This document shows positions 28,153 through 29,402 of a stretch of DNA of 37,150 nt, one piece after another. Position 1 is the first letter of the stretch. Every line of letters starts with the position of its first letter. The position numbers and the translations under genes are program-made. The stretch comes from an uncultured Gammaproteobacteria bacterium. GTDB taxonomy: Bacteria; Patescibacteriota; Microgenomatia; Levybacterales; UBA12049. The notes under the pieces are model-generated. The model was not told the origin of the DNA and did not search any database. It worked only from the letters and a program-made list of their open reading frames with translations. Where the stretch lies: the NCBI GenBank assembly GCA_964503265.1, contig CAZCYO010000005.1:1-37150 (forward strand). Reading direction: 5' to 3'.

Positions 28153-28157
28153 ATTGT

Positions 28158-28190
28158 GTGAAGAGGAGGATGCGTCGTCCTTCTCTTCAC
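28158..28190. terminator. Hairpin, probable terminator of the small-ORF cluster
   Basis: GTGAAGAGGAGGA...TCCTTCTCTTCAC, immediately after the 28198 stop. Confidence 0.6.
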
Positions 28191-28197
28191 AGTGGGT

Positions 28198-28431
28198 TTA
28201 CCACGTGATAGTGAAGTCCGGCGGACAGTTAGGAGCGCAAGGCGATGGTGGCAGTGTGAGAACAACCATCAGAATTCCGCACGCGATAAAGATCAAGGCG
28301 ACAAGTATAATGACTGCCTGCACGTTATCCTCATGTGTCATCTGTTCAGACGCATGGCTCGTGTTTCCCACCAGCCCAAAGAACAGACATACGATACCAA
28401 TCACCATGAACCCACACCCGATCCAGCTCAT
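28198..28431 (-). CDS. Small two-TM hypothetical protein
   Basis: GGAG SD; ATGA overlap with the upstream ORF stop. Confidence 0.6.
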   Translation of the reverse strand: MSWIGCGFMVIGIVCLFFGLVGNTSHASEQMTHEDNVQAVIILVALIFIACGILMVVLTLPPSPCAPNCPPDFTITW

Positions 28432-28646
28432 TTCTTCTCTCCTTCTTTCTTCTCATCAGTTGGAACTGTGAGAAGAAGAATAGCGATAAAGGCTAGTACC
28501 GCTGCATCAAAGCGCTCCTCTAGAAGCGCCAAGATGAACAGATACGTAGCCACTTTCACCACAACGACGTCGTAGATAACACCAAGTTTCTCTTGCACCT
28601 GACACCTCTCTTCTTTGATACCGATTTCAATCCATGACGACTTCAT
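28428..28646 (-). CDS. Small two-TM hypothetical protein
   Basis: GGAG SD; hydrophobic core; charged termini. Confidence 0.55.
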   Translation of the reverse strand: MKSSWIEIGIKEERCQVQEKLGVIYDVVVVKVATYLFILALLEERFDAAVLAFIAILLLTVPTDEKKEGEKK

Positions 28647-28722: not shown

Positions 28723-29037
28723 TCACGAAGGCGTGTTTTCAACCTGCACGTCGGCAATCTTCCGCTCCTGCACACGAGCGTTCATATACTCGATGTGCGC
28801 GAACAGTGAGAGAACTCCCAGAAGCAGCAGACATGCCAGCGTGAAGAACAGTGCTTCTTCCCTGATTCGGCTCACACCGAGAGAAATCACTGCCCCTATA
28901 TACACTCCAACCGCCGTGATCGCAAACATATTCCCCACCTCCCGGTAGTAAACCGCAAGTTCACTGGGGGTCAACAGCTCCTGCCTTTCAGCAAGGCTGA
29001 GCATCGGGTGCCGAGAGTTGAATCCTGGGTCCCACAT
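28723..29037 (-). CDS. Small two-TM hypothetical protein
   Basis: AAAGGAAG upstream; two hydrophobic segments. Confidence 0.6.
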   Translation of the reverse strand: MWDPGFNSRHPMLSLAERQELLTPSELAVYYREVGNMFAITAVGVYIGAVISLGVSRIREEALFFTLACLLLLGVLSLFAHIEYMNARVQERKIADVQVENTPS

Positions 29038-29201
29038 GGTAATCTCTTCCTTTCTTTGTTTACCCCTCCCTCAAGCCGCAGAGGCCTCCCGCGGCTTAAT
29101 AGAAGAGTAAACAAAACATCCTCCTCAATTATTAATGTACTGTTTTTCCTACTTAGCTTCATAACGCAATTGTTATGGCTTAGGAAAAACAAAAAACGCA
29201 C

Positions 29202-29327
29202 AAAAAAACCTCCTAGTAGGAGGTACTCTGTGCGTAAATAATAAAACCTATTTCATTCTTTCCACCAGCTTACCTCCGTTTAGGAACGGTAAATAAGCCA
29301 AGTAATAGAAATTGAAACGGTTTTCAT
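29202..29327 (-). promoter_or_regulatory. Candidate ribosome-mediated attenuator (leader peptide MKTVSISITWLIYRS at 29327-29280, antiterminator, terminator)
   Basis: GGAGGUA (29277-29271) is complementary to UACCUCC (29225-29219); terminator ACCUCCU-ACU-AGGAGGU plus U tract. Confidence 0.6.
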
Positions 29328-29338
29328 AGATTCAAATT

Positions 29339-29367
29339 AGTATACAAAAGATATATATATCTGTCAA
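29339..29367 (-). promoter_or_regulatory. Consensus sigma70 promoter
   Basis: TTGACA(29367-29362)-N17-TATACT(29344-29339). Confidence 0.85.
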
Positions 29368-29377
29368 ACCATACGCT

Positions 29378-29402
29378 GTCATTCTCGACTGGATCGAGAA
29401 TC
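29378..29402. repeat. GTCAT-type REP-like palindrome
   Basis: GTCATTCTCGACTGGATCGAGAATC. Confidence 0.85.

Follow-up and report, generated by a model that had tools for sequence, protein, structure and literature searches.

A probable leader-peptide transcription attenuator upstream of small membrane protein genes in an uncultured CPR bacterium

CPR/Patescibacteria are usually described as poor in regulators. The locus studied here lies on the minus strand of a 37,150-nt stretch of DNA from an uncultured member of this group (contig CAZCYO010000005.1, positions 1 to 37,150; the whole of this stretch is referred to below as the window). It consists of a promoter, a very short open reading frame and a terminator, followed by three small membrane-type ORFs, and it raises the question of whether these parts form a switch that reads the progress of a ribosome, as an earlier sequence-only reading had proposed, or serve some other purpose. 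The analysis led to the conclusion, to which a probability of about 0.8 was assigned, that the element is a ribosome-mediated (leader-peptide) transcription attenuator, and that it very probably serves as a ribosome-sensing on/off switch in an ultra-small uncultured CPR bacterium. The mechanism itself is a textbook one; what is new is the CPR lineage, the almost leaderless start and the membrane genes of unknown function that are under its control. No paper tying CPR bacteria to leader-peptide attenuation was found in the searched literature.

Computation located the promoter, start codon, leader ORF and terminator on the minus strand where the sequence-only reading had placed them (Table 1); the promoter matched at 11 of 12 positions, and the U tract comprised seven residues instead of six. 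Within the surrounding 9 kb only one other promoter site scored equally, and it was the promoter of the leader that was read as a Trp T-box. Genome-wide, the starts of long ORFs peaked 6 to 10 nt after strong promoter-like -10 sites, and leaderless initiation is common in the host genome. The leader start, with a spacing of 11 nt, was at the edge of this main leaderless peak and outside it, and no Shine-Dalgarno (SD) sequence was present for the ATG at 29327. Because the AUG lies beyond the peak and is without an SD sequence, the leader ORF is only presumed to be translated. Its UAA was located 3 to 5 nt ahead of GGAGG(UA), a distance that ranged from -7 to +22 in the family relatives described below. 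The leader contained no run of a single codon; Trp, Leu and Tyr each occurred once in the putative sensing window, and one of the three Ile (AUU) codons of the ORF was inside it. Between the tgt stop codon and the -35 sequence a perfect inverted repeat that lacks a U tract was also observed, which could be an operator or the 3' hairpin of the tgt mRNA.

Table 1. Features of the element and of the region downstream of it. Positions are those of the window; pairing states and the transcription start are predictions.
Feature	Position	Strand	Remarks
Whole element	29202-29367	-	Promoter, leader ORF, competing helices and terminator
Perfect 8-bp inverted repeat ATTCTCGA-N5-TCGAGAAT	29381..29401	-	Its end is 14 nt short of the -35; retained on strain contig X2
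Sigma-70-type promoter TTGACA-N17-TATACT	29339..29367	-	Family members are headed by the same promoter type
-35 TTGACA	29367-29362	-	17-nt spacer to the -10
-10 TATACT	29344-29339	-	
Predicted transcription start	29333-29331	-	6-8 nt after the -10; 5' UTR of 4-6 nt
Near-leaderless leader ORF MKTVSISITWLIYRS	29280..29327	-	15 codons plus stop; ATG at 29327, 11 nt after the -10
Putative sensing-window codons Trp10 UGG (29300-29298), Leu11, Ile12, Tyr13	29289..29300	-	From constraint folds and the position rule of trpS- and alaS-linked relatives
Stop codon TAA of the leader ORF	29282-29280	-	In the apical loop of the 1:2 hairpin
Segment 1	29285..29324	-	5' arm of the long 1:2 hairpin, wholly within the leader ORF
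Segment 2	29243..29280	-	3' arm of 1:2; contains GGAGGUA (29277-29271); alternative partner is segment 3
Middle hairpin	29237..29260	-	Only in the antiterminated (2:3) state; equivalent hairpin in family members
Segment 3	29219..29234	-	Terminator 5' arm UACCUCC (29225-29219) and ACGCAC, the partner of GCUGGU in segment 2
Segment 4	29202..29214	-	AGGAGGU (SD-like word) plus U7 tract; GUG next, at 29201
Terminator ACCTCCT-ACT-AGGAGGT plus T7	29224-29202	-	Stem lengthened by GCACAGAG/UUUUUUGUGC
First hairpin past the terminator	29141..29191	-	Inner stem CATAAC/GTTATG, loop AAUUGC; three compensatory pair changes in L180, loop unchanged
Second 5'-UTR hairpin	29055..29115	-	25-nt arms; overlaps mini-ORF MFCLLFY*; about 98% identical in L180
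ORF104, two-TM orphan, first regulated gene	28723..29037	-	Strain substitutions mostly at third codon positions
ORF72, small membrane-like orphan	28428..28646	-	
ORF77, small two-TM orphan	28198..28431	-	Start overlaps the ORF72 stop (ATGA)
14-bp hairpin just past ORF77	28157..28193	-	No good U tract; abuts the -35 of the T-box promoter

Folding was carried out on the transcript 29332-29202, with nucleotides numbered from its 5' end. The unconstrained fold consisted of the 1:2 hairpin and the terminator (-40.1 kcal/mol); with the flanks included the fold had an energy of -53 kcal/mol (z -6.6), and none of 200 shuffled sequences was equally stable. For the 1:2 pairing, the sequence-only reading had cited CCGUU (29289-29285) with AACGG (29280-29276). 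This pairing exists, not as an isolated 5 bp but within a helix of about 38 bp, the 5' arm of which (29324-29285) is the ORF itself and the 3' arm of which is 29280-29243; the hairpin alone gave a z of -5.0 against dinucleotide shuffles. The proposed complementarity between GGAGGUA and the terminator 5' arm UACCUCC was borne out, in a 2:3 hairpin larger than the 7 bp cited, and this alternative fold had a z of -3.8 against dinucleotide shuffles.

The ribosome was then mimicked by blocking the 5' part of the transcript during folding. When nucleotides 1-35 up to 1-52 were blocked, the 2:3 antiterminator was the best structure (-30.5 to -23.3 kcal/mol) and the terminator was gone. In this structure GGAGGUA (29277-29271) was paired with UACCUCC (29225-29219) and GCUGGU with ACGCAC, the middle hairpin (29260-29237) was formed, and UUCCU from the last leader codons was paired with AGGAG of the terminator 3' arm. 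Blocking of nucleotides 1-60 or more, the footprint of a ribosome at the UAA, brought the terminator back, and stalls at about codons 7 to 13 permitted antitermination in these folds. The trp-like 1:2 / 2:3 / 3:4 logic that had been suggested was in this way reproduced in all three ribosome states. A short ORF stands at the start of a transcript with mutually exclusive 1:2, 2:3 and 3:4 helices, of which 3:4 is an intrinsic terminator, and the UAA is so placed that, in the constraint folds, segment 2 is covered by a terminating ribosome and segment 1 alone by one that stalls earlier. Since both hairpins far exceeded their shuffled controls and the constraint folds behaved as described, the proposed geometry is real and more extensive than had been claimed.

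A stable RNA behind its own promoter might equally be a stand-alone small RNA gene, in which a long-hairpin RNA of about 130 nt acts in trans or as an antisense RNA and the ORF is incidental. This was the first reading, dropped after the constraint folds. The promoter-to-terminator unit is indeed about 130 nt long, its fold is very stable and its 5' UTR is too short for an SD sequence. Moreover, terminated attenuator RNAs elsewhere act in trans, as rnTrpL is able to do in other bacteria (PMC6614838), and such action could be an extra role here. However, a second, exclusive fold that removes the terminator would have no purpose in a plain small RNA, the placement of the stop codon in the hairpin loop recurs in family members whose peptides are cognate to the following genes, and the stretch from the terminator to the ATG of ORF104 showed no further promoter. 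A stand-alone small RNA is accordingly judged highly unlikely, and attenuation is retained as the preferred reading. The RNA runs that were searched contained none of the element's sequence.

The sequence-only reading had suggested a search for homologous leaders; this recovered a family of leaders with cognate codons, but not a direct homologue of the element. Reading of the weak covariance matches revealed a shared design in Levybacteria-type CPR genomes: a sigma-70 promoter with a start codon 6 to 7 nt after the -10, an ORF of 13 to 27 codons, a hairpin with GGAGG in its 3' arm, a small middle hairpin, and a terminator of the form (A/G)CCUCC(C)-loop-(G)GGAGGU-U7 with AUG or GUG directly behind it. 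The strict pattern GGAGG-N20-50-CCTCC-N3-7-GGAGGTTTTT (in RNA, GGAGG-N20-50-CCUCC-N3-7-GGAGG-U5+) was present in 121 of the 194 genomes of the CPR (Levybacteria-type) family, at 1 to 6 copies each; the reversed pattern, used as a control, gave zero matches in every one of the 194. The element matched the strict pattern (G000:C5:29204-29277), as one of four matches in its own genome, and it has the promoter with a start codon 6 to 13 nt past the -10 and the stop codon at or next to the 1:2 loop that mark the family. Members with start spacings of 11 to 13 nt that also have codon runs exist (L123, L144 and L152), and the 11-nt spacing of the element is therefore within the family range. Across the family, the complementarity of the nucleotides next to the invariant GGAGG and CCUCC words was 4.09 pairs of 7 compared to 3.42 ± 0.14, a value above all 2000 permutations, which supports the 2:3 helix across the family.

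The genes that follow these leaders, identified by their Pfam names, correspond to the codons that the leaders carry. The leader MKNNLIVFTYFYFTP was upstream of DAHP synthase and pheS, and FTYFYF, SWFYFYF and FAYFWFYF leaders were located ahead of DAHP synthase, DHQ synthase or pheS; of these, ..FAYFWFYF.. preceded a PfkB kinase and DAHP synthase, and ..SWFYFYF.. preceded DAHP synthase and dehydroquinate synthase. A leader with an FFF run (..YFFFT..) was upstream of pheS, ..SIICIIIATKTS was upstream of threonine synthase, ..IVITITPC was upstream of aspartate kinase, and both ..MMAMMMTS and ..MSMSMMPS were upstream of SAM hydroxide adenosyltransferase. Some family members precede orphan genes. 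The family seems to be a general tRNA-charging sensor of Levybacteria-type genomes, and its scaffold is a reusable set of SD/anti-SD words on almost leaderless mRNAs. The searched literature contained no match to a GGAGG/CCUCC leaderless attenuator family of Levybacteria-type CPR genomes.

Several related arrangements were observed in the course of this survey. Tandem duplicated attenuators, with the paralogous leader peptides MIRLFAANCPSTKTTS and MIRNFNSNCPGTETSTS one straight after the other, were found at L112:1440-1720 and in L153; the 395-aa gene behind L112 had no detectable relatedness to the 394-aa gene of the window. At G000 C2:75900-83300, four further ACCUCCC-loop-GGGAGGU-U7-AUG terminator/RBS hairpins occur within 7.5 kb, amid small genes of unknown function. 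A promoter and a leaderless short ORF lie ahead of two of them, and four consecutive AUU codons occur in one of these ORFs. The promoter/short-ORF/terminator units at C2:75907 and C2:76877 shared the words of the family and showed no switch on blocked folding.

The identity of the downstream genes also bears on a different type of leader-peptide switch, one that responds to general translation stress or to a ribosome-targeting compound, as in the erm, cat and bmrB systems. Such a switch would account for a leader without a codon run, for regulated genes that encode small membrane proteins and include no amino-acid genes, and for a terminator 3' arm that is an SD-like word, as in ermC-type attenuation; orphan genes are found behind other family members as well. 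On the other hand, known downstream genes in the family always have cognate leader codons, and to our knowledge the leader peptide contains no recognised arrest motif. A stress or drug response is consequently regarded as unlikely, and sensing of charged tRNA is preferred.

Which amino acid would be sensed was approached through codon position. trpS was located in 171 family genomes and the upstream regions were read; in 14 of these genomes a family-type attenuator was present 0.3 to 2.8 kb upstream of trpS, often just behind a TrpR/YerC-like gene. In all 14 trpS-linked leaders a UGG preceded the first GGAGG by 16 to 21 nt, with a pair of UGG codons at 21 and 24 nt in one of them, and the distance from UGG to the 3' end of the segment-1 word was always 11 to 13 nt (for example ..NWQDL*, ..KWQPSF* and ..DWYGL*). 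In an unbiased sample of 31 elements, a Trp codon in the leader was associated with trpS downstream (4/4 compared to 5/27, p = 0.004). In one leader that precedes alaS, the canonical position is taken by a single Ala codon and Trp is encoded farther upstream, which argues that the position of a codon, and not its mere presence, sets the amino acid that is sensed. With regard to the regulation of trpS itself, four arrangements were noted across the family: a T-box; a TrpR/YerC-like gene with a single-Trp attenuator; a WW attenuator with a racemase; and nothing detectable.

In the element, the UGG of Trp10 lies 23 nt upstream of GGAGG; its distance to the helix end is 16 nt, and to the final base paired with GGAGG 13 nt. 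Which codon satisfies the position rule of the family, with its 11 to 13 nt to the end of segment 1, depends on how that segment is delimited: Trp10 does so when the partner of GGAGG counts as segment 1, and Leu11 or Ile12 when the helix end or the ACCGUUCC word is used. The closest nucleotide match of the leader in the family was an Ile-type leader, with a weak score. Trp10 or the nearby Ile codons had been named as the stall site in the sequence-only reading; these do lie inside the sensing window, but the placement of Leu11, Ile12 and Tyr13 is no worse than that of Trp10. Since the regulated genes are orphans, the cognate pathway gives no confirmation of the signal. Trp is therefore put forward as a tentative assignment, Ile or Leu as a comparably tentative one, and the remaining chance falls to a mixed signal or general translation stress.

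Searches for the element itself gave little beyond close strains. Rfam, at gathering scores and at E values up to 10, returned no leader family, and Trp_leader (RF00513) was not matched. In blastn searches of its own genome and 60 relatives the leader was single copy and only terminator-like words were matched, and a single-sequence covariance model run on 245 genomes of the order gave only weak matches that were not homologues. A diverged leader was also sought via the conserved 5' UTR; viral contigs, the GTDB species genomes and the 194 genomes of the family yielded none. In other metagenomes two individual reads extend as far as the terminator and no farther, and the homologous contig L180 (935 nt) starts inside the 3' arm of the terminator. 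No diverged orthologue that would allow a covariation test of the element's own peptide or helices was recovered.

Near-identical copies were present on short contigs from ten other metagenomes. Between these strains the leader differed at 7 of 1057 aligned bases compared to 51 of 1347 in the flanking coding DNA (Fisher p = 1.6e-7), so that the leader was conserved about six times better than its flanks, a comparison to be read with the caveat that the runs were retrieved through shared 31-mers. One leader SNP converted a U.G pair of the 1:2 helix to C-G and was synonymous (ATT to ATC); a second affected a bulge base that is unpaired in both folds. On the contig from run X2 (depth 3), a 2-bp deletion near 29351 would shorten the (AT)n promoter spacer from 17 to 15 nt; this may be an error or may mark a strain whose promoter is weakened.

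These data bear directly on whether the locus is a decayed relic, that is, a former attenuator or an inserted palindromic element that now has no regulatory role. It is single copy and has no orthologue in the 194 family genomes, it lies in the tgt-trpS gap, a region that varies between relatives, and the cassette behind it is GC-rich. A relic would not, however, be expected to be kept about six times better among strains than the neighbouring coding DNA, nor to retain an intact promoter, frame, stop position and both alternative helices; nor does the element resemble the hairpin repeats found elsewhere in the window. Decay is hence considered barely credible, and a functional attenuator remains the preferred reading. 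A mobile hairpin or MITE was rejected, as the hairpin repeats at trpS and mutM have different sequences. A Phd/YefM antitoxin remnant was also rejected; a relative has MKTVSVRDARK... downstream of tgt, only five residues match with no likeness beyond them, and the match was put down to chance.

The region behind the terminator was examined next to its closest homologue. ORF104, ORF72 and ORF77 had no Pfam or NCBIfam family above cut-off, and for ORF72 and ORF77 the orphan label refers to these two databases. Among 1.8 billion representative proteins ORF104 had one real relative, a 126-aa protein encoded on L180 that is 41% identical. The GC content of the three-ORF stretch was 47-55% compared to 39% genome-wide. 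When L180 (1-170) was aligned to window positions 29205-29045, the terminator arm, U tract and 160-nt 5' UTR were nearly identical and the coding sequence had diverged: nucleotide identity in the 5' UTR was about 98% over 95 nt, versus the 41% protein identity of ORF104. Together with this conservation, the compensatory changes in the UTR hairpin CATAAC-AAUUGC-GUUAUG at 29177-29160 suggest a further RNA element of a kind not yet known. In a read from a different metagenome, the 160-nt UTR is joined to a family-type terminator whose loop differs. As the UTR is joined to a family-type terminator both in L180 and in this read, the attenuator belongs to the cassette.

Other features of this region were noted. 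A perfect 13-nt inverted repeat, GGAGGGGUAAACA / UGUUUACCCCUCC, at 29069-29057 and 28694-28682, brackets ORF104 and is retained in L180 apart from a single G.U change; it might form a long-range RNA stem that closes off ORF104, or mark a cassette boundary. The mini-ORF MFCLLFY* (29119-29096, minus strand), whose AUG directly adjoins GAGGAGG, spans the 5' arm of the second UTR hairpin; its L180 counterpart reads MFCLLFS*, and the mini-ORF could act as a second translational switch. In a read from run X9, the loop of the GC-rich UTR hairpin (29090-29080) is inverted, with GGGAGGCCTCT in place of AGAGGCCTCCC; either a template-switch artefact or a true inversion within the hairpin could explain this. 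ORF104 and its sole homologue both start Met-Trp, and in ORF72 and ORF77 a Trp occurs among the first five codons.

Relatives share the murI-murD-tgt...trpS gene order, with a tgt-trpS gap that varies. In the window, the element and the three ORFs lie between tgt and the T-box/trpS operon, and only the 14-bp hairpin separates ORF77 from the T-box promoter, so that read-through from the cassette into the trpS operon is possible. In three relatives (L171, L172 and L174; genomes G204, G208 and G231) a close homologue of the T-box core directly follows tgt, with no attenuator. Given this arrangement in the relatives, the attenuator and three ORFs look like an inserted cassette and not like the ancestral head of the T-box operon. 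The T-box core homologues in L171, L172 and L174 (..GCAAGGUGGCACCGC..CAAGGGCUUUUUU) are located about 1.2 kb before trpS.

Taken as an attenuator, the element would be expected to work as follows. RNA polymerase would begin 4 to 6 nt ahead of the AUG of the 15-codon ORF, and a 70S ribosome would load on this short 5' end. If no ribosome were loaded, segment 1, the ORF, would pair with segment 2, segments 3 and 4 would form the terminator, and transcription would stop at U7. Smooth translation to the UAA in the hairpin loop would place the ribosome footprint over GGAGGUA of segment 2 and would again lead to the terminator. If charged tRNA were scarce at codons 10 to 13 (Trp-Leu-Ile-Tyr), the stalled ribosome would hold segment 1, segments 2 and 3 would pair and the terminator would be removed. 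The polymerase would then enter the structured 5' UTR and the three small membrane-protein genes, leading to their expression, and read-through might extend into the T-box/trpS operon. A consequence of the long 1:2 helix is that transcripts coming from tgt, on which the ORF is not leaderless, should terminate, so that the cassette would be insulated from upstream read-through.

A broader reading was also considered, in which a portable starvation cassette, made up of the attenuator, its conserved structured 5' UTR and the three tiny membrane proteins, became inserted directly upstream of the Trp T-box/trpS operon, with the leader and the T-box acting in series on one read-through transcript and the membrane proteins serving as a starvation effector. 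We regard this as rather doubtful. If it were true, the leader would respond to how much charged tRNA is available and the T-box to uncharged tRNA-Trp, the effector might act by, for example, membrane depolarisation, dormancy or help with uptake, and the result would be a two-gate amino-acid circuit that has not been described in any organism. What sets the element apart is its orphan membrane-protein cargo, its single codons in place of runs and the T-box in series. The locus would be a compact system in which to study the sensitivity of a one-codon attenuator and the possible combination of two different tRNA-charging sensors on one operon.

Among known systems, the E. coli trpL attenuator (RF00513) resembles the element in its leader of 14-15 codons, with Trp at codon 10 and a stop codon a few codons on, and in its 1:2 / 2:3 / 3:4 logic, intrinsic terminator and masking of segment 2 by a ribosome at the stop. 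In contrast to trpL, the element has no SD sequence, a 5' UTR of 4-6 nt, one Trp codon instead of two, a 1:2 helix of about 38 bp, segments built from SD/anti-SD words, orphan membrane genes downstream and no Rfam match. Attenuators also control synthetase genes, as in pheST/pheM of gamma-proteobacteria, and precede trpS and leuS in Streptomyces (PMC1262725). Relatives of the element likewise precede trpS, pheS and alaS with cognate codons, whereas the element itself belongs to a CPR lineage and is parted from trpS by three ORFs, the T-box and two more genes.

Leaderless leader-peptide attenuation is represented by Corynebacterium ilvBNC (PMC11857589), and leaderless poly-Cys uORFs have been described in mycobacteria (bioRxiv 10.1101/834739). 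As in these actinobacterial attenuators, the leader ORF of the element is at or beside the 5' end of the transcript and stalling would control the operon; theirs have codon runs, while the element has a short 5' extension, single codons and GGAGG/CCUCC stems. With ermC-type translational attenuation the element shares a last stem that hides an SD-like word right before a start codon, a word that a stalled ribosome would free, but its stem precedes U7 and should terminate transcription, and no antibiotic link is known for it. The closest likeness is to the GGAGG/CCUCC family of CPR genomes, to which the element adds a well-built member: it has the promoter, the near-leaderless ORF, the stop at the 1:2 loop, GGAGG, the middle hairpin, CCUCC and GGAGG-U7 followed by a start codon. 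It differs from the family in a 1:2 helix far longer than the usual 5-9 bp, in a distance of 11 nt from the -10 to the start codon compared to 6-9 nt, and in having no codon run and being placed in series with a T-box.
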